A DNA stretch of 64,000 nt from the NCBI GenBank assembly GCA_010015805.1, contig ML978126.1, positions 868,001-932,000 on the forward strand. Direction: 5' to 3'. A model generated the notes under the pieces. It had not been told where the DNA came from. It made no database searches and saw only the letters and a program-made list of their open reading frames with translations. A program made the translations under genes and the position numbers. This document shows positions 10,996 through 23,336 of the stretch, one piece after another. Within the stretch, counting starts at the first letter, position 1. Each line of letters starts with the position of its first letter. Source of the DNA: Rhizodiscina lignyota (taxonomy: Eukaryota).

Positions 10996-13022
10996 TCACA
11001 GTTTACTGCCGCTCGCCAAGGCCTTGATAACCTCACTTGCAGCTCTCTGTCCCGAAGTGACAGCACCTTCTAAATAACCCTTCCACTCGTACGCAAGTTC
11101 GCCTCCTCCAAAATGCAGGTCTCCAAAAGGCTCCCTGAGCGCCGAGCCGTACTGGTTGAGCAACCCAGGCCCCATCGCCGAAGTTGGTGCCCCGCCGATG
11201 AAGTCCTCTTTCGTCCACTCCACGCAATTGACCTCTAGTACGTCTCTTGCCTTGGAGGCCAGCTGAGGTCCAACAAGAGTTGCAAGATGCTCAATAATCG
11301 CTTCCTCGCGAGCAAGCTCACTCAACGCATGCCATTCCGAGGCGCGACGACCGGCGATGAAAAGCGCCAGGCTGTACTGCCTCGTCGCCTCGTCGCTGGT
11401 TTCCCAGCTAAAGCAGATGGGTCCGAGCATCGAGGTGAATTTCCCGACTAGACCAGCGTGCCTCCACCATGGAGATGCGTAAGTGAGAACCATTTTTGCA
11501 TATATACCAGGCTTCGTGCGCGAGACAAGTGCTTTCTTTGCGCGAGGAAGGGGCGGAGAGAAGCGAATGTTGGCGTAAGTATTCGTAGGGATCGCGAGTA
11601 CTACCTTTTTCGCAATGAAAGTTTGTCCCGTTACGGTGGTGACGGTGGATTTTTGTCCGTATTGTGTGATGGATCCAACAGGACTATGGATGATGACACT
11701 CCCTGGTTCCATCGCAGCAGCAAGCGCAACAGCAATCGACGATGTTCCTGGAATAAAAATTTCATCAGAATACTGACACGAGGGAAGCAGTCACTCCCGC
11801 AGTACTCACCTTTCTTGAGCTTTAACGACTGGGCGCCATACTCTCCCTCCGTGACACAGCTAACCCAGCCACCACAGGACTTGATGTAGTCAAAGAAATA
11901 GTGGGCGCCGGTTTCATGTGGCTCTCGTCCGACGATTGCAGAAGTCAAGTGGCTGCACTGTGCTCGAATAGCAGCGTCGTCATATAGGCCCTTCTCTATC
12001 ATCCAATCCGCCACAGACACATCCTCATTCTGTGGGAAATCGTCCCACTTGCGGATATCGCGCTGCTCAGCGGCTTCTGCGATCGTTGCGTAGAGCTGTT
12101 GCACTTTTGCGGCCACGTCATCCGCTGAGGCCTGAATGGTCGTTAGCTGTGGAACGCTTCATTTTCCTATGGCAGCGGAAAAGTTGATGGTTACCTGGTC
12201 CTGGTGGCTGTCTGAACTCCTGACGGCCTGGCCATCAATGCATTGAAAGACCTCATCGCCGTCAGTATATTGCTCTGCAGTCTCCAAACCGAATTTCTCT
12301 GTCAGGGCATAGACGGCTGGCTGTGTCCATTTGTTTATCCACGTCGCTCCCATGTCTATAACTCCTGGCCCACTCTTTAGAGGTTGTGACCGACTTCGCC
12401 CGCCAATTCGATGCCTGGCTTCCAGTAGGACAGTTTTGATCCCTGCTTGCTGCAGTTCATAAGCTGCTGCGAGACCTGAGAAACCCCCACCAACCACAAT
12501 TGCATCCACTTCGACGGATGGGACAGGGCGAGCCACTGCTGAAGCACCTCCTGGCGGAAGATGCCCGTCTGCTTCTGTCCACGGCCTGGAAAGCCCACCA
12601 ACACTGGCTACAGCTTCAACCTCAATCTTGGCTGCTGGAAACGCTAGTTTGGCAACGGGAATGAGCGTAGTCAGAGGTCTATATGTGACACCATACTCCT
12701 CGGTGAGAAGTGCAATGACAGGTTTGACCAGATCTGCACCCGCGTCCAAGGTCCAGTCAACAGCATAGAAGCGAAGCTGTACGATATCACGTGGAGATGT
12801 ACCTGCAGCGCGAAGGACATCGACCACGTTTGCAATTGCTTGCTTCACCTGCCCGCCAAAGGTGTCGGGGAAGCTGCCGTCTTTGAATTGACCAAGTTGA
12901 CCTGATGTGAGGACTAAACGACCAGCACCGTTTATCGATACACCGTGGGAGTACCATCCTGGATCTGAAATTGATGTGCCATTGACGAACGAGGTATATG
13001 GATGGACGTCTCGAGGTGCCAT
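10996..13022 (-). CDS. Fusion protein: N-terminal Rid/YjgF (endoribonuclease L-PSP-like) domain + flavin-containing amine oxidase, with C-terminal PTS1 (SKL); exons 12195-13022, 11810-12131, 10996-11747
   Basis: Rid motifs WYSHGV..LVLTSGQLG..QVKQAIANV..L.AAG....DIVQLRFY..IEVEAVA. These are followed in the same exon by the FAD-binding VDAIVVGGGFSGLAAA..LLEARHRIGGR and DMGATWIN, and later by EPFGDLHFGGGE..WKGYLEGAVTSGQRAA. The protein ends ASGSKL. Introns 12132-12194 and 11748-11809 are canonical. Confidence 0.92.
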
Positions 13023-13263
13023 GACTAGAAATGTCTAAGTCTGGTTTGGGATGATGAAGATGGGAGAAGTAGTAGAGTTAGGACTCTCGCCCTCGTTCGA
13101 AGTGGAGAATCTATTATAGTTACAGCACTTCATTGTTTCTCGTCACGGATTCTACAAGTTTACGATCGGTGAAGACGTTCTCCGAGACGGAGAGACAGAA
13201 GGCTGCTCCAATTGATCTCGTACCCCTGCATAATCTAAGTGCAGCAGGGCGCGGCAATTGCCC

Positions 13264-13290
13264 TTATCTTGCCGCCAGATCTAGCCGCGC
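13264..13290. promoter_or_regulatory. Candidate Zn2Cys6 binding site ATCTAGCCGCGC (with an adjacent TTATCTTGCCGCC variant) in the oxidase/TF divergent promoter
   Basis: An 11/12 match to the ATCTAACCGCGC direct repeat at 16952 and 16976. It contains a CCG (CGG) triplet and sits about 260 bp upstream of ATG 13022. Confidence 0.45.
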
Positions 13291-13447
13291 ATGGCATCCT
13301 TTCTCCTCTTCTCTACGGAGGCGTACGGATTACCCCAGTCTGTGCTCGTGACATTTCTACTCCGCATCACATCTTCGCCTGGAGCGGGCGTTGTGGGGAT
13401 GCAACACTTCTCGCCTTACATTATTTGATGCCATCAGACGTGGGAAC

Positions 13448-15183
13448 ATGGCTAATGCAGCTCCTTTGGATCTGATGCTGGCGAACCGGTTTCCAAGACG
13501 ACACTCCCAGCTCGCGTACGATCTTGTCGATGGCCATGAGGAGTCACATCAGGGTCGACATCGCAGTTCTCGCGCCCTGCGACCCAATTACCCACGTGTA
13601 AGAACAGGATGTCTAACCTGCCGCATTCGCAAGAAGAAGTGCGACGAGATCAAGCCGCGGTGTGCAGGTTGTCGCCGGAACCAAGTTTACTGCGAATGGC
13701 CGTGTGCTACGAACGTCAAGCCCTCGAAAATGGATTCCCAAGAGTATCTCCCTGACTCTGAGGACCTGCATCTTCGATCTTCTTCACCAGTAATTTCACA
13801 CACCGCCGGAGTGACAGGATTGAGAATTTCTTGGGATTTACCACTACGTGAAGATCTGCCCCCGCTCTGCAAAGGCGAAGTAGGAAATTTCTGGTCTCTG
13901 TTCAACCCACGTGTTGGGACCTGGACTGGCTCAGACCGACCCTGCTCGCTGACACCAGCATCTCTTCTGCTATTCAGCCACTACCTGAGCGAGACTGGGG
14001 TCTTACTGGCTATGGTACCATTTCACAAAAATCCCTTTATTACGCACATTGTCCCAATGGCCTGCACGGACGACTTGTTAATGCACAGCGTGCTGGCATT
14101 AAGTGGAGCACACCTAGCGTTCAAACAAGATCTGGATGCGTCCATTCAGAGTGCTACTTTGCGCCACTATTCAGAAGTCATTCGGGGTCTGCGAACTGAG
14201 GTTGGCAGTCTTCACATGAAAGATGCTCGAGGCACTCTAAGACTGCTGCTCATTTCCATCATGGTGTGCCACTACGAGGTCAATGTTCTGATTCGACATC
14301 TTCAATGCTCAAGCTAATCAGCGCACAGGTCCTATCAGGAGACATGACTGGAACTACCTTTAAACACTTGCGTGCAAGCCGGGAACTTATTCTTCAGCTC
14401 CTTTCGCAGCCTGATGGACTTACGGCCGGCTTTCTCGCATTTGAAACTGATGCACTTGGTCTCTGCCTCGAGCTTTATGCTTACATAGTGATTATGAACT
14501 CACTCTCACCCTACGGCAGTGTGGCCACTCGGACCATGCCGTATGATACATTCGTCCTGTCGCTGGGGACGTTAAGCTCATATTCGACCTTTGGCACGAT
14601 GTTTGGTGGAATACACGGGCTCTTTGAGCTTATTCCACAAGTTGCGTTGTTAGCCTCTCAGAGGCTGGTGGAAGAAGAATCAGGAATGACCAAGCCAGAT
14701 CCAGAGACGGTTGCAATGCATGATTCTCTCGAAGCTCGTATTCGAAATTGGGATCTCTCCCCAGATCCATCAGAGGATACTACGGAGTGGGAAGAGCGAA
14801 GCACTGCGGGCGAAGTGCTCCGACATGCGTTATACATCTATCTCTCTACTGCGCTAGCCGGATCACTCATATCCGACCCTGATATCTTATCGTTCATCCA
14901 ATTCCATATCGATGCTATCCTCAACATGGCCGGTTCTCTGGCAGAGTCTCATTACGCATGTACCCTCATGTGGCCACTACTAATCGCTGGCTCATGCATG
15001 GTCAGAGAATCACAGCGTACTGAGCTTGTCACGAGGCTTCGGGCATCTAGATATCGCATGAAGCATGTGTTTTCGGCTTGCGACCTTCTGCAGAAGCTAT
15101 GGGAAAGCCATGATCCGCAAGCGTATGGGCCCTATGGACTCTACATGATGGAGAGACATGACTATTGCATACCAATTATCTAG
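13448..15183 (+). CDS. Zn2Cys6 transcription factor with a C-terminal fungal-specific (DUF3468/Fungal_trans_2-type) domain; exons 13448-14278, 14329-15183
   Basis: Binuclear cluster RVRTGCLTCRIRKKKCDEIKPRCAGCRRNQVYCEWP, plus NPF..HIVPMA..DDLLMHSVLALSGAHL and LMWPLLIAGSC. Intron 14279-14328 (GTCAAT..GCTAAT..CAG). The first in-frame ATG is at 13448; the ORF-track start at 13391 is TTG. Confidence 0.92.
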
Positions 15184-15241
15184 CAAGAAACCTATTTGTC
15201 TGGACAAAGACTTGGTTGAACTTAGATACACGCAGTTCCTG

Positions 15242-16726
15242 TCAAAGCCTATTCTTTCTCAGGGTCCGAATAACCTCTTGCGCTCCCCTCACTCCAGACC
15301 GAACGGCGCCTTCCATATAACCTTTCCATACCAGCGCAGTCTCGGTCCCCACGAAATGCAGCTTCTCAAAAGGCTCACGAATTACTTTGCCCGCATCGCT
15401 AGTCAACAAGCCTGGCATCATAACCGGCGACGGAGCGCCGAGCGCCCATGGATCCTTGGCCCACTCCTTTTCGATGATATTAATTGGGGCTGGAACCTCT
15501 ACGCCCTTCTCTCTTGCAGTTCTTCCGAAAACAGCATCGAATTGCTCTTCCACCTGTCTTCGGCGCTCAGCGGCAGACCATTTCGACCACTCTCTTCCAC
15601 TGTCGCCAACAATGAAGCAAGTGATGCTATACTGCTTATCAGCCTCGACGCAAGTGTCCCTCGTAAAGGATATCGGTCCCTTCGCGGACGTCATGAGCCC
15701 GCTCAGTCCGGCTTCACGCCACCAAGGCACCCCGAAAACGAAGATTGTCTTCGCGTAGTAGCCCAGCGCTGTATTCTCTGCAAGCGCCTGCTTGGCTACC
15801 GGCAGTGGCGGCTCAAAGATTACGGAAGGCAAATTGGACGTTGGAATAGAAAGAATGACTCTCTGTGCATGAAAGACCGGTCCAGAACCTTCCGTCTCGA
15901 CCTTACAGCCCTGGGATGCTTCTTGCGAAACCCGGGAGACGGCTGTTGAGAGTCGAAGGGAGCCATGGGGTAGCAGAGCTGCCAGCCGCACTGAGAATTG
16001 CTGGTTACCTGCTCACGTCATTAAGCAGGGTCTCGGGGTAAATAGACGAATAGGATGTGAGAAGCTCCTACCTTGGCGATTTCTTAAATATTGACCACCA
16101 TGCTTCAGATCTGACGACATGTTCTCCAGTCCTGTCCCACTTTGGATGTAATTCAACATGAACAAGACACTGACTTCATCCGCCTCGACTCCAAGGAGTG
16201 CAGCACTCAACGAACTCGCTGCTTGCGCCGCAACATCACCTCCGGCGTCCGCGGCGAACTTGCTGAAAGTGACCGAGTCTAACGACGCAGCGTTTGGACT
16301 CAAGTGTGGCTTTTCCAGGTGTCCTTCAGCGACTCGGTGATTTATACAATCAAAGAGGGCTCCCAATGCCTCCAAATCTTCTGGTGTCGATGGTTCTCGA
16401 GAACCATAAGGGTGTGTCACGACCTCTCCGCCCGGTCCCTGTGACAGGCTGAGACCTGAAGCTCTTTGCTTGACTAGATCGAACCCGAATTCGCGAGCTA
16501 ACTTGTACATCTCGCTTTGGTTGCTGTCGTTGATCCAGGCGGCACCCACATCGACTTTTCCGCCTCTGCCGGATGAGTCGAGGCTCAAGGTCTTGCCGCC
16601 AACTCTGTCTCTTGCTTCAAGTACGAGAACAGATAACCCTGCTCGATAGATGTCGACAGCTGCGCGTAGACCAGAGAGTCCGGCGCCGACGACGATAACA
16701 TCAACTGATGCGGAATTTGTCGCCAT
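15242..16726 (-). CDS. Flavin-containing amine oxidase (MAO family); exons 16072-16726, 15242-16008; ends in PTS1-like NRL
   Basis: Motifs VDVIVVGAGLSGLRAA..VLEARDRVGGKT, DVGAAWIND, GYYAKTIF..PWWR..GLSG and EPFEKLHFVGTETALVWKGYMEGAVRSGVRGA. Intron 16009-16071. Confidence 0.93.
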
Positions 16727-16951
16727 TGTGGTTTGTTAAACAACGATGGCTACTACCAAGGAGAATCAGGCCATCCGTAAACTTCAACCGCTACTGAGAA
16801 CCTCCGTCAAAGGCGCCATATATCTTGAATGGTCCATCCGCCATCAGTTCAAGGTCGAGCAAAGGCAACCGCGGTCGTGCTGCAATCGATTTTGGGTTTT
16901 GATCCGAGTTCAGACTTCAGCCCCACAGCGAGGTGGGTCTGGGCGGAATTT

Positions 16952-16987
16952 ATCTAACCGCGCCAAGCATCTGAAATCTAACCGCGC
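16952..16987. promoter_or_regulatory. Direct repeat ATCTAACCGCGC x2 (24-bp period) in the oxidase/permease divergent promoter
   Basis: Exact 12-mer at 16952-16963 and 16976-16987. The first copy overlaps a TTATCT (GATA) site. Confidence 0.5.
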
Positions 16988-17609
16988 TGTGCATTAGCGC
17001 CCGCCACAAAGTCTGGGGCCCCGCGCTCCTTCACAAAACTCTGCACGGTTGCACAGACAACAGTGTTACGCCCGAAGTGTTCTTGCCTCCTCGATCGCTA
17101 GTTTTGTGAGGCACAGTATCTTGACCATGCTGTTTATCTACCCGCTCGATGCGTTAGTCCTAGGGCGAAGCGCTTCAGTCGGCATGAGGCCTTCGATGTG
17201 CCCTGATATGCGTAATAGCATGCGGGCCGGTAGAGTTTGGCTTCTGTTCTTCAATTTAATTCGATGTTTCATGCTCAGACTTGAGTCCAGATGTTAGGAA
17301 ATCTACTTCGGAATTGTAGCTCATGTGATTTTCCTTTATCTCATCCATTGCCCAAATTTATGACACTGCATCCTTTGCTCCGATGTAGGTTTTGGATTTG
17401 ACGATCCACGATGAACTTGCCGCGGCCAGCCAGGTCACCACCTTCTCTTCTCGCGGCTCCAAACCCCCTAAGAACTCTTCTAATCGGCTAATATGAAGCC
17501 TTAACCCCCCCTCGACTCGATTATTGATTAGCTGCTCTTCCACCTGCCAGTGCTTTATTGTCTCTTCTTCTCCTTGTGCAATTTCACATTTCACAAATAA
17601 CAAGAAGCA

Positions 17610-19492
17610 ATGTTCCCCGTTCAAACGAATACCTCCGGTTCTGGGAGTAGGTTACGGATTTTCTTATCCTCCACGCAATCATTTCAACTGAAACCTGAAC
17701 CGTCAGACTTTCCCGAGAAAGCAGAGATCCCCTCACCAGTAACCCGGAGCATCGAAGAGGATAACAATGTTGAGCTCGGACTAGAAATTCCTGCAAATGG
17801 CCAAGGACAAATGAAGAAAGATCTGGGGGCTCTGACGCTTCTAGCCATTTGCTTCAACATCTGCAACAGTTGGCCGGGCCTCGCCGGCAGCGTTCAAATC
17901 GCTCTACTCCAAGGTGGTCCAGCAACACTTCTCTACGGCATGATCATCAGTGCCAGTCTTTACATCTCTATCGCTTTGACTATGGCGGAGCTCGCGAGTG
18001 TGTACCCGACTGCTGGAGGTCAATATCACTTCGTATCCATCCTTACGCCGAAATCTCTGAATCGTGGTTTATCCTACATCTGCGGTCTACTCACAAATTT
18101 TTCCTGGATTGCCATCGGAGCCTCCGTCCTGATGATCCCAAGCATGCAAATCACTGCTCTCGTGTCTCTTTACCGCCCGACATATGTCGTTAAGGCTTGG
18201 CACGAATTCTTAATCTACGAAGGATTTGGCCTCGTGATTCTCTTGTATAACCTTTTCGCAGTGAAGAAGCTCCCAAGAACTCACGACGTTGGATGTAAGT
18301 CATCTCTTCTCATACGACTCGCAAAAGATGGGACAGCGTACTAACAACTTGTGAATTCGACTTCAGTCGTATTGACCCTCACGCTGTTTGTCGCTACAAC
18401 CCTGACATTTGTCATTCGCTCCTCTCCCAAGGCAAACAACGACTTCGTTTGGGCGACCTTCACAAACTTCACCGGCTGGCCAGACGGTGTCTGCTTCCTC
18501 ACATCTCTTCTAACTACTTGCTTTATCTTCGCCGGCTTGGATGCATCGTTGCACATGGCGGAAGAAGCCCCGAATCCACGAGTGTCGGTTCCAAGAGCCA
18601 GTGTCACCGCGATTGGAATTGGTTTTGTAACAGCCTTTGCATATGGCATTGTACTGCTGTATAGCATCCCAGATTTCGAGTCGATTGTTGCGATCGAAGG
18701 GTGAGTCTCACCGTGTGTCGCGACGTTCCATGGACTAGCTGATCGGATCCCTTAGCTATTTGCCCCTCGAAATATCCCGCCAGGGAATGCGCTCCGACCT
18801 TGCAGCTGCTATCACCCAGGCGGCTGGTGTCGTCATGACATTCTTTGTGATGAACGCAGTGCTTGAGACTGCCTCTCGGATCACCTGGGCGCTAGCTCGC
18901 GACAATGCATTGATATTCCCCGGCACATTCAGCAGTATTCATAGCACTCTGGGCGTTCCTATTTGGTCGATAATACTAGACTGGGCAATCCTGTCTCTGC
19001 TGGGATTAGTCTTTCTTGCATCGACAACAGGTGAGTTGGCAAAACTGCCAAAGATGCACCGAAGCTTTCTGACTTCCACTGACAACTTGTTAAAATAGCG
19101 TTCAATGCTCTTCTCGGATCTTGCGTGGTGTTGCAGCAGCTCTCATTCCTTATGCCCACAGTTCTCCTCATGTACCAGAGAAGATCGGAAGTCTTCTTAC
19201 CACGGAACAGGGCTTTCCGTCTACCCAATTGGTTTGGATGGATTGTCAATGCTTGGGTCGTCGTTATGTCCGCGCTTCTTGTCATTTTCTTCTTGCTGCC
19301 GCCTTTTCTGCCCGTCACTGGGAGTAACATGAGTCGGTATCCCTCCTACAGCTTGAGGTGGACTTTCAACTGACAGAAGAGACAGATTACAACGTCGTCA
19401 TCTTGGGAATCGCTGCCATTCTGGGGATTGTGAACTGGTTCGCCCACGCTAAGAACCACTATCAAGGTCCGAGAATATTCTACCACGACTGA
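17610..19492 (+). CDS. APC-superfamily amino acid/amine permease, ACT family (GABA/choline permease-like); exons 17610-18294, 18367-18700, 18756-19030, 19099-19332, 19386-19492
   Basis: Motifs FNICNSW, GGPATLLYG, MAELASVYPTAGGQYHFV, F.NFTGWPDG, GLDASLHMAEE, ASRITWALARDNAL and GSNMNY..WF.HAKNHYQGP. Four canonical introns restore a single frame. Confidence 0.93.
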
Positions 19493-19836: not shown

Positions 19837-22800
19837 CTATACGAACATACCTTTGTTCCTAGCATGACCAGCAAAGCCGCGCTCAACCTTACCAAGCTTC
19901 TGGGAAAAATCTATTTGACGAAGTTCTTCCCACATAATTTCATCAAGTTCTTGACCACACCTAAAAAGTCCTAGCTGTGAGTTGCACCACAGGTCCGGAA
20001 GAATGGATGACACCTCAGACCACCATTCGTCCCAAAACTCGTCCAGTGTGCCATCGAAAGCGCTGCGGCGCTGAGAGTATGCCATCATTATGAGCTGAAG
20101 TTGCTCAAGGTAATAACGATCTTCTTCTTGAATCTCAGCAACTTCTCCTTCCGTCGGACAAAGCAGAATTCCACGTTGGTCATTGAGGTCGCAACATGAA
20201 TGTTTCATGCCTAAACGCTCAAACATTTCAATGCGGCAAGCTTCTTCAAAAAAGACTTCCATCTCCGGGCCGTCATACCCACACTGTTTGCACCAACGAG
20301 TGAGGATTGCTCTTCTAAAGCTCCATCCTACTAGAAAATACCCAGGATCTGTACTTTTCAGGACCTTGTGAATTGGAAGACACCCGCTCGAGGAGCAAAA
20401 ACAGCTGCACCCATCACGTTGAAGTTTTCCGGTGGCTGAAGCAGCAGTGGCCAATGTAGCACCATAATATTCTTCTTCCTTGTTCCACATAGATGCCCAC
20501 GCTTTTCCCATGTAGAATAGAGCTGATGGAGCATAAGGCCTCGGAAAGGAGGCGGATGCGCCAATTTGCACAAGGCAAGATATTAAACGCCAGTCCCCAA
20601 ACTGCACGGATCCCAATAGAGAACATTCGCGAAGCAGCACCGTGCGGCCATCCGGTAACGGTATATCCACAGCTGACGGGGAGAACCCAACGCTCGAAAG
20701 TGCCCGCGCCATCGCCACAGAGTCTTTAGCAAGATGAAAGACCGTAGCTTGGGGCCCAGGGAAGAGGGCAGGAGGTACAGGAATACTTCTGTCCATCAGA
20801 GCCTCGTATACTGGGAGAGCCCAGATGTCGAGAATTGGCTCAGTATGGAGCCCTAAATTATCTTGATCTGCTTGCGTGAGGTTGTCTGCAGCCAGGTCCC
20901 GAAGTCGATGCCGCCGATTAGCAATAGCTGCTGCGAAGCAAGATGCGAATTGGTCTCCTATACTGTCGAAAAAGCTTGGATGAAAGCGAGAGAACATCGC
21001 GCAATCATGTTCAAGGAGAATCGTGAAAGAGTCTATATCTCTAGTTGTGTGGGCAAGACTGAGAGCAGAAAAGCCATTCGCGCCTGCTTCAATAAGAAGT
21101 TTCGTGCCTTCTGGCCAACCGAGCGCACAACACAGAGGAGTCGAGAAGCTATGAGCTAGTTCTGTTTGACCGGCATCCCAACCTTCGGAGAGCAGTCTCT
21201 TTACGTCGGACTTCGAGTTCCGGACGCACGCATTCTGAAGATAGCTCAGATTCCAACCTGAATGTGTCAGAAACGTTCGTCATGCTACATAACACAACTT
21301 ACATTCAAGAATCTCGAGAAAGGACCTTAACATTGAGCAATGATGCCCGACTCGGTCTAAATGGGTATCTCTAGATACTTCCATAACTATGCATTCGTTT
21401 TCGATTAGAGCTGACTCTATCCAGTGAGCATTACTCGGGTCGACCACCAAAGTCATACGACGGTAGTAAATCGCAAAATCAAGGGCTGTCCCGGGCCATC
21501 CAAATATAAACGGGGTGACAGCGTTCATGTCGACACCAGCATGGAGAAGCAATTTCACTGTATGCTGAAAACTACTGAGCATATCGGCGTTAGTATCAGC
21601 CTTACAAAACCAAGCGACTTTTACGAGTTCCTATGTCCAATTAGAGGGGGGCTTTTTGGCAAAATCAGTCACAATTCAACCACTCACATGAAGCAGAGTG
21701 CTTCCATTTTCATCTTTGCCTGTAGCGGATGCCATCCCTGTTTCAAAACATCTCACGAGGTCTTGAGCTAGATTGTTGAAGCGTTGCTTAAGCTCTCGTT
21801 TCTTTTCACTAGATGGTTCAATGAAGAATGGTTTATAAAATTCCCGGAAAATGGCAAATGCTGGTGAAGTTTCTCTGGAGACTGTGGCATAGTAGTTTAT
21901 TGGTCGTGCTAAGGAGAAGCCTCCTGCGCCAGAAGTGGCACCAAATGTCATTTCTAGCGTGCGGGAGAGGATTGGCAACAGGCACAGACGGATCCCATAT
22001 TCCCATGTGTGCATTGATGCTGTGCGGAATGGACAAGATGTATCGTGTTTCCATTTCCGAATAGTGGAGGACCAAAATGGCCATTTTGCCCAGTATTTTG
22101 ATTGCGTATGAGGAATACAGTTGCAAAATCGACTCCGTAATCCTAATTTTCGTCGGCCGGAGTTGGGGCTTGCTTCTGCGCACTGCTCCCATTGCTCTGC
22201 AAGGTAAGAGGGCTTTGAAAGCAGATGTAATCTTAGTCTTACGATCTCAGCTTGCATATCGGACGCAGCAAGAAGAAGCGCCGAATTACCCTGCTCCGAC
22301 AGCGTTGCTACGTTGTCAATCTTGGTAGCTATCGAAGATTGACCGGCTTCGAAAGTGGCGATCGAACTTCGCTCAAACTTCTGAAGGCTATCCACAAGCT
22401 TGATGTTTCCGTCTGTGATATGATCGTGGAGCTGATTAACTTCTTGCTTAGTGTCTGCGATCAGGGAATGGGTTCCGTCGAGCTTTGTCTCCAGCCGTGC
22501 ACTGTGCTGTTGAACACGGTCGTTGAATCCATCCCTCGTTGATGTGATTTCTGCCGTTATCCTAGTTAAGCCGGCTTCGGTCGAATTGCCAACGGATGAT
22601 ACGGCATGTTCAATGGATTGATGCCCAGCGGTTGTATTGGCGCCAACCATGTCCAGAGTTGTATTGGTGCAAGAGGTGAGCAGGATGTGGGTGGTGGTTT
22701 TGGTTTCGTGGATTCGCTCAAACAGACGGGATATTTCCTCCTCCTTCTTGACACTGATGACCTCCCGCCATCGCTTGCGCAGAAATGCATCGTTCGACTG

Positions 22801-23085
22801 AGTCTGTAAAGGCTCTAGTATAGACTTCAGCTCATCTAATAAATCTTTCATCTTGTTGCACTGTGCCTGCAAATCAGGAACATTGGAACCAGAGCCGGCG
22901 GGAATCCCAGCAATCTCAGTTTCGAGTCTTGCGAAAAGCCGCGAGGCATCTTCCAGATCAGCGACAGCAGCTTCGACTCTCTGTGGTGCGCGTTTGAGTT
23001 TAGAGAGATATTTTACAGCCTTGCAACAGCTGGCGAAGAGGTCCTGAGCTGCGGCGACACCTCCGAGAACCTCGAGACCAGACAT
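19837..23085 (-). CDS. Protein with N-terminal HeLo-like (fungal N-terminal domain of STAND proteins) domain and ankyrin-like repeats; exons 21688-23085, 21303-21630, 19837-21257
   Basis: The N-terminus MSGLEVLGGVAAAQDLF...LKRAPQRVEAAVADL is typical of this domain. Ankyrin-like segments are KDENGSTLLH, KLLLHAGVDMNA and TPLCCALGWPEGTKLLIEAGAN. The C-terminus has a CSCFCSSSGCLP / LGMKHSCC / EIQEED block. Introns 21631-21687 and 21258-21302 keep the frame open. Confidence 0.75.
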
Positions 23086-23336
23086 CGTGAAGTGAGAGTA
23101 ACAAGACTGCAGAGAGATATTATTCGGCTCAGTCTAGAGAGTATTGATTGATCACATAAGGAAGATGAAAGAGAAGGAAGAGAGATCTGAAGCATTACCT
23201 TTCAGAGAGAAGGCTGTGTCGCAATTCAGCCTTGCGGCTCTGCCGGGCTGCACATCGCTACGTTGAGACTGTTAATTGGGTGGCCCCTGCAAGTTGCAGT
23301 AGCGCACGCGATACATAAGGACGATACTTTCAGCCC

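Follow-up and report, generated by a model that had tools for sequence, protein, structure and literature searches.

A candidate amine-utilisation cluster of Rhizodiscina lignyota with two cyclohexylamine oxidase-type pockets and a fused Rid domain lacking its catalytic arginine

Four genes in two divergent pairs

We analysed a 64,000-nucleotide stretch of the fungus Rhizodiscina lignyota (assembly GCA_010015805.1, contig ML978126.1, positions 868,001 to 932,000; hereafter the window, numbered from its first letter) and focused on a cluster of four genes at 10996-19492, a span that runs from the stop codon of a first amine oxidase to that of a permease. A preliminary description of this DNA had proposed two back-to-back pairs within 8.5 kb, one of a Rid-oxidase and a transcription factor and the other of an oxidase and a permease, and this layout is borne out by spliced gene models and by Pfam, confirming that the four genes are genuine, intact and arranged as first described. 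The spliced models of all four contain no internal stops, all eight introns are bounded by GT..AG, and the DNA of the window is fungal, with introns of the spliceosomal kind. The intergenic gaps measure 425, 58 and 883 bases, and Pfam searches on the 12 exons yielded, in gene order, Ribonuc_L-PSP with Amino_oxidase, Zn_clus with Fungal_trans_2, Amino_oxidase, and AA_permease_2.

Oxidase 1 (13022-10996, minus strand; exons 13022-12195, 12131-11810 and 11747-10996) is a Rid-domain/flavin amine oxidase fusion of 633 residues, letter-identical to the database protein P0001, which NCBI names 'putative mao-A [Rhizodiscina lignyota]', and its C-terminus is SKL, a canonical peroxisomal signal. A pseudogene reading was rejected because the in-frame stop at 12161-12159 falls within a 63-base intron. 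The AlphaFold model of the protein (mean predicted local distance difference test score 88) comprises two well-folded domains separated by a disordered linker at residues 154-167, and its top Foldseek matches are monoamine, putrescine and cyclohexylamine oxidases. Across a divergent promoter region of 425 bp (13023-13447) lies the regulator gene (13448-15183, plus strand, intron 14279-14328), which, from a predicted start codon, encodes a Zn2Cys6/Fungal_trans_2 transcription factor of 561 residues; the six cysteines are present in the translation, and the Fungal_trans_2 domain is recognised by Pfam.

Oxidase 2 (16726-15242, minus strand, intron 16071-16009) is a stand-alone flavin amine oxidase of 473-474 residues that ends in NRL; at its tandem splice acceptor (16009-16012) the database model P0056 takes the upstream AG, which gives one extra Ala. 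It is separated by a second divergent promoter region of 883 bp (16727-17609) from the permease gene (17610-19492, plus strand; exons 17610-18294, 18367-18700, 18756-19030, 19099-19332 and 19386-19492), whose product of 544 residues belongs to the APC superfamily and is probably of the amino acid/choline (gamma-aminobutyric acid, GABA, permease) type. TIGR00907 (TC 2.A.3.4) is the best NCBIfam model in all four permease exons scanned, with exon-wise scores below the whole-protein cut-off, and NCBI names one relative 'choline transport'. Permeases of this type carry GABA and choline.

The two oxidases are 35% identical and fall into separate clades in a tree of 86 sequences (support for the oxidase 1 clade, 1.0), indicative of old paralogues and not of a tandem copy; a recent tandem duplication of one oxidase was rejected on these grounds. 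The label 'solo' given in this tree to P0020 is wrong, as Pfam finds a Rid domain in that protein.

Oxidase pockets and the fused Rid domain

Both oxidases score above the Pfam cut-off for PF01593 and carry a motif for binding flavin adenine dinucleotide (FAD). With human MAO-B and bacterial putrescine oxidase they share the fold, the flavin N5 lysine (MAO-B Lys296; Lys468 in oxidase 1 and Lys306 in oxidase 2) and the equivalent of MAO-B Tyr435 (Tyr608 and Tyr450, respectively). In contrast to MAO-B, however, both have Ala in place of Cys397, the site of covalent FAD attachment, and Pro in place of the cage residue Tyr398 (Pro571 in oxidase 1 and Pro412 in oxidase 2, P0056 numbering). With Ala-Pro at Cys397-Tyr398, and with chains that stop after the oxidase domain and so carry no membrane tail, neither belongs with MAO-A/B. 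Glu324 of putrescine oxidase, the anchor for the second amine, aligns to Phe496 of oxidase 1 and Phe334 of oxidase 2, and Phe occupies this position in 138 of 174 relatives. The polyamine alternative put forward in the preliminary description is therefore not upheld, since this acidic anchor is replaced by Phe in both enzymes.

The pocket instead resembles that of cyclohexylamine oxidase (CHAO) of Brevibacterium oxydans (4i58/4i59), a point absent from the earlier description. The enzymes share with CHAO the flavin amine oxidase fold, the lack of a membrane tail and the Pro at the Tyr398 position, and the equivalent of CHAO Tyr321 is Tyr466 in oxidase 1 and Tyr304 in oxidase 2, where MAO-B has Val. 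In the alignment to 4i58 both also carry the equivalents of Tyr215, Phe351, Phe368 and Tyr459. They differ from CHAO in having Trp at Phe88 and are 27% identical to it by structure alignment; moreover, CHAO is bacterial and has neither a Rid domain nor a peroxisomal signal. According to the CHAO report, Tyr321 supplies the missing cage hydroxyl from another place in the chain, the open cage is termed unique to CHAO, and the enzyme acts specifically on alicyclic and sec-alkyl amines, with cyclohexanone as product (PMC3608611). Likewise, a study on AnFAO, a characterised fungal relative, describes conversion of an amine to a ketone (PMC9415688). Because the pocket is of CHAO type and the Glu324 equivalent is absent, we infer that the substrates would be alpha-branched primary amines and the products ketones, and a ketone product would account for the missing aldehyde dehydrogenase. 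That absence, already pointed out for the cluster itself, extends to its surroundings: the 54 flanking open reading frames (ORFs) scanned, of 167 listed for the window, included neither an aldehyde dehydrogenase nor an esterase, an ABC transporter or a flavin monooxygenase. Certain pocket positions are fixed differently in the two clades, with Trp498 in 31 of 31 relatives of oxidase 1 and Arg in 12 of 14 relatives of oxidase 2, which suggests that the two oxidases have different substrate ranges.

The Rid (YjgF/YER057c/UK114) domain of oxidase 1, assigned by structure alignments and Pfam, occupies residues 1-143 (12594-13022, minus strand). It scores 57 bits with PF01042 against a cut-off of 27.3, and 29.7 bits with TIGR00004 against a cut-off of 106; in the ESM Atlas it was placed only with generic Rid clusters. 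Alignments to the structures of YjgF and TdcF put Thr118 at the position of RidA Arg105, while Tyr24 and Glu134 correspond to RidA Tyr17 and Glu120. The same holds across the family of fusions, taken as all 42 matches of our homologue search that carry PF01042: Arg at the 105 position is found in none (34 Thr, 6 Ser, 1 Val and 1 Met), whereas Glu120 is kept in all 42 and Tyr17 in 34. The loss of this catalytic arginine had not been recorded in the earlier description either, and a built-in RidA imine hydrolase was rejected, as the defining residue is absent from 42 of 42 fusions. Judged by their defining residues, then, the oxidases and the Rid domain are placed outside the MAO-A/B, putrescine oxidase and RidA groups.

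According to a study of the Rid family, Arg105 is the residue that holds the carboxylate of the substrate and is indispensable for activity on imino acids, and Rid4-7 proteins, which are without it, showed no imine hydrolase activity on imino acids and had no known activity as of 2015 (PMC4433059). The same study describes RidA/Rid1-3 imine deaminases clustered with bacterial amine oxidase genes (PMC4433059), a likeness in Rid fold, in Tyr17 and Glu120 and in association with an FAD amine oxidase; the R. lignyota domain differs in being fused rather than adjacent, in being fungal and in being without Arg105, like Rid4-7. Since the product of an amine oxidase would have no carboxylate, loss of the arginine could be an adaptation rather than decay, and the domain, having dropped the carboxylate-gripping Arg and kept the water-placing Tyr and Glu, may be a hydrolase for carboxylate-free ketimines. 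Mutation of Tyr17 or Glu120 had little effect in RidA, however (PMC4433059), which weakens the idea that these two residues could be enough. A part in ligand binding or in forming trimers is no less likely.

Rid fusions are found on either side of the tree, and the R. lignyota genome has a second one on another contig (C7:1446200-1448200), which likewise is without the Arg, ends in AKL and has a catalytic domain closer to oxidase 2; it adjoins an aldo-keto reductase gene and, by eye, a probable Zn2Cys6 gene. A canonical peroxisomal tail is found in 13 of 42 fused proteins vs 11 of 132 unfused ones, and a relaxed pattern, set after the data had been seen, in 32 of 42 vs 17 of 132; the relatives in these comparisons are not independent. 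Among Rid-less short relatives of oxidase 1 the canonical signal occurs in 0 of 19, vs 8 of 35 in the comparison set. No description of the cluster or of a fungal Rid-oxidase fusion was found in the open-licence literature. The fusion is, however, already visible in automatic protein names (P0148), and it may already be described in the AnFAO (2020) and Exophiala spinifera literature, where it is said to appear; the E. spinifera amine oxidase reportedly has an N-terminal Rid-like extension.

A shared promoter motif and linkage in other genomes

Both divergent promoters contain ATCTARCCGCGC: the first has one copy, at 13279, and the second has two, at 16952 and 16976. The candidate regulator site in the oxidase 1/regulator promoter, ATCTAGCCGCGC (13279-13290, plus strand), has a degenerate copy 13 bases upstream, and a motif search located the two putative sites of the oxidase 2/permease promoter, both ATCTAACCGCGC, at 16952-16963 and, 24 bases further on, at 16976-16987 (plus strand). 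CCG triplets are characteristic of Zn2Cys6 sites. Of 2000 dinucleotide shuffles, 5 produced a 12-mer shared in the same pattern and none produced such a 12-mer with CCG/CGG; for 11-mers the corresponding counts were 45 and 14 of 1000. The promoters also hold one and three GATA sites, as in nitrogen repression, which by estimate is about chance level, and the oxidase 1/regulator promoter contains an inverted repeat, TCTCCG-N3-CGGAGA (13179-13193), a possible further Zn2Cys6 site.

The 12-base motif has seven copies in the genome, three in the cluster promoters and four outside, against two for the reversed control. One outside copy, an exact one, stands 273 bases upstream of a gene on another contig (C1:1365414-1366400, minus strand) that encodes a putative (R)-selective amine transaminase; this protein ends in AKL, matches the A. 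terreus (R)-selective amine transaminase 4ce5 with an E value of 2e-168 and satisfies both published motifs of (R)-selective amine transaminases (R-ATAs). The substrate idea, which came from the pocket, and the motif, which came from the cluster promoters, were both set before this gene was seen. By a rough estimate, such a pairing would arise by chance with a probability of 1e-4 if either R-ATA gene is counted, and of 3e-3 if the genome is taken to hold 50 amine-related genes and any of them is counted. A binomial estimate for three of seven copies falling in the cluster promoters was set aside as circular. The 11-mer has 12 copies outside the cluster, and the one at the transaminase is the only suggestive case. 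The preliminary description had called the cluster self-contained, and this is now doubtful: the motif copy at an unlinked transaminase suggests that the module may reach beyond the cluster, which in addition contains no gene for a carbonyl product. An aspartate-dehydrogenase-like gene lies about 1.7 kb past the 3' end of the transaminase gene. Elsewhere in the genome (C10:1099000-1111000) a second R-ATA gene, 70% identical, has as neighbours a Fungal_trans_2 regulator, a DAO-family FAD oxidoreductase, a dimethylformamidase-like gene and a transporter of the UNC-93 type; together they probably form a further cluster for the catabolism of amines or amides.

Linkage in other genomes was judged from consecutive NCBI accessions, and by this measure the core of oxidases and regulator is linked in 4 of 8 comparable genomes. 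In Eremomyces bilateralis, KAF1812579, 578 and 577 are oxidase 1, regulator and oxidase 2 (70%, 47% and 66% identical), in an order matching that of R. lignyota (KAF2098754 and 756), and the two oxidases are adjacent in Thozetella (KAH8900745/744) and Talaromyces stipitatus (EED21861/860). These three are selected cases and not a random sample. In a prospective test on Trichoderma viride, a relative of the regulator (ACHAO4_009627) was found to adjoin oxidase 1 (ACHAO4_009626). The four genera cover what we take to be three fungal classes. Only two clusters of homologous sequences were found for the regulator, at 47% and 39% identity. Because the core recurs in other genomes, it appears to be more than a chance grouping, and the proposal that the cluster is a module for uptake and oxidation, dedicated to this task and separately regulated, gains support from this conserved adjacency together with the single motif in both divergent promoters.

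Among 79 metagenome loci, most of them high in G+C and bacterial-looking, none held a relative of the regulator or permease, a Rid neighbour (fungal-domain profile) or an R-ATA relative; one locus, L062, gave a weak tblastn flag that was not confirmed. None of 11 pattern matches in prokaryote genomes was confirmed. In R. lignyota itself, one more unfused amine oxidase of this family is encoded close to an epoxide hydrolase gene and a Zn2Cys6/Fungal_trans_2 gene (C10:256000-265000), which makes a neighbouring regulator weak evidence by itself. Fusarium graminearum FGSG_05272 (P0067 cluster) is 59% identical to oxidase 2, and a search of the open-licence literature found no paper naming it. On the left, the cluster is flanked by an unrelated RSN1/OSCA-type channel gene; on the right (19837-23133, minus strand) two long ORFs without a confident Pfam match, in which a coiled N-terminal part and ankyrin-like repeats can be seen by eye, are probably one fungal gene with an intron.

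A possible route for alpha-branched amines

We give about even chances to the reading that the cluster is an inducible module drawing nitrogen from alpha-branched primary amines of sec-alkyl, alicyclic or amino-alcohol type, induced through the shared motif. The permease would import the amine, and the two FAD oxidases, presumably with non-covalent flavin, would oxidise it to a ketimine and H2O2; the ketimine would hydrolyse to ammonia and a ketone, with no need for an aldehyde dehydrogenase. Oxidase 1 would act in the peroxisome, and oxidase 2, with its different pocket, would probably take other substrates or act in another compartment. The Zn2Cys6 protein would activate all four genes through ATCTARCCGCGC in both divergent promoters and perhaps also the unlinked peroxisomal (R)-amine transaminase. 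The gene structures, domains, pocket residues, adjacency of the core in other genomes and motif positions are observed, whereas the substrate class, ketone product, localisation, regulation and transport substrate of the module are predictions.

Several observations pull against this reading. The Pro/Tyr cage is family-wide, being present in 136 of 174 fungal relatives, and so indicates a chemistry rather than the substrate of the R. lignyota cluster, and the link from cage to sec-alkyl amines depends on a single bacterial enzyme that has been characterised. Taken as a whole, the oxidases are no more similar to CHAO than to MAO-B, and the top PDB match is a bacterial monoamine oxidase with a Tyr cage that has also been solved with putrescine (8p84/9h5p). 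As to linkage, four of the genomes compared (Ilyonectria robusta, Ilyonectria sp., Fusarium commune and Fusarium nematophilum) show no adjacency between the relatives of oxidases 1 and 2. The preliminary description had looked to co-localisation of all four genes in other genomes, which holds in part for the oxidase-regulator-oxidase core: permease linkage was found in no other genome (top 6 non-fragmentary of 150 relatives, 5 of them without an accession). The membership of the permease is thus drawn from the R. lignyota genome alone, where its family has many members (27 matches from 20 scored of 101 candidates). As to the motif, its length was picked after the sites had been seen, three of the four outside copies adjoin unrelated genes, the second R-ATA gene has no copy within two mismatches, and a looser form of the motif is rarer than its control (56 vs 117).

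Three other explanations, which overlap in part with the proposed route and with one another, were weighed. The best placed among them, though unlikely, is a module complete in itself that acts on an ordinary unbranched amine (monoamine, diamine or polyamine), giving an aldehyde that general aldehyde dehydrogenases elsewhere would clear. The best sequence and fold matches are indeed monoamine and putrescine oxidases, the permease type transports GABA and choline, and unlinked aldehyde dehydrogenases are common in fungi; neither oxidase, however, has an equivalent of Glu324 or the Tyr398 cage residue, and the transaminase with the same motif belongs to a class acting on ketone/(R)-amine pairs.

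The cluster might instead detoxify amino-polyol or sphingoid-like (fumonisin-type) toxins of competitors by the same chemistry, nitrogen gain being secondary, a reading that we consider improbable. Against it, the ORFs scanned beside the cluster include neither an esterase nor a monooxygenase, nor an efflux pump of ABC or MFS type, an importer suits feeding more than defence, and the family is scattered over many lineages. Still, AnFAO of Aspergillus niger and the Exophiala spinifera enzyme deaminate such molecules, and the first ~130 residues of AnFAO, by eye, hold two residues marking the oxidase 2 side of the family, and the start of the protein matches oxidase 2 at ~45 of 81 positions and oxidase 1 at ~29 by hand count. 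None of the collected relatives contains the AnFAO motif that was tested. The fumonisin amine oxidases give a ketone and are, like ours, fungal FAD amine oxidases; the R. lignyota cluster differs in having no esterase or efflux pump among the ORFs scanned and in having two oxidases of separate clades with a regulator. Patents on the E. spinifera pathway are also said to describe a choline-type permease.

It is likewise quite doubtful that only oxidase 1, regulator and oxidase 2 form a unit, with the permease a chance neighbour and the motif serving the oxidases alone or coincidental. The size of the permease family and the lack of a permease link among the top 6 of 150 relatives would fit such a three-gene unit, as would the position of both motif copies of the oxidase 2/permease promoter, 226-250 bases from oxidase 2 and ~630 from the permease; on the other side, the permease is probably of an amine-carrying type and has a divergent promoter in common with oxidase 2, and the genes flanking the cluster on both sides are unrelated.

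Beyond the nitrogen-gathering module, a bolder extension can be framed, to which we attach a small probability: an undescribed fungal regulon for alpha-branched amines, in which two CHAO-type oxidases and the unlinked peroxisomal (R)-transaminase would answer to one Zn2Cys6 factor and deaminate both enantiomers, with the arginine-less Rid domain as a new hydrolase for carboxylate-free ketimines. In all 42 cases examined the fused arginine-less Rid sits with the enzyme that would make its carboxylate-free imine substrate.

In composition, divergent pairing and patchy conservation the cluster is like what is said of fungal nutrient-utilisation clusters, for example those for proline and nicotinate in A. 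nidulans, from which it differs in its enzymes and in having no carbon-skeleton gene. All its parts come from known families, and clusters that combine enzyme, permease and regulator are an everyday finding in fungi; taken by itself, this one is therefore only moderately interesting. Yet the oxidases are candidate biocatalysts for amine resolution or mycotoxin removal, and biocatalytic uses are being studied for fungal (R)-amine transaminases and fumonisin-type oxidases. We know of no natural substrate for either of these two fungal enzyme types, and the open-licence literature contained no statement either way. A promoter element common to both would place them in a single inducible pathway and could lead to its inducer. 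If true, the ketimine-hydrolase reading would supply arginine-less Rid proteins with a first activity and the regulon reading would assign fungal (R)-amine transaminases a task in nature; the module may point to the natural job of two fungal enzyme types.

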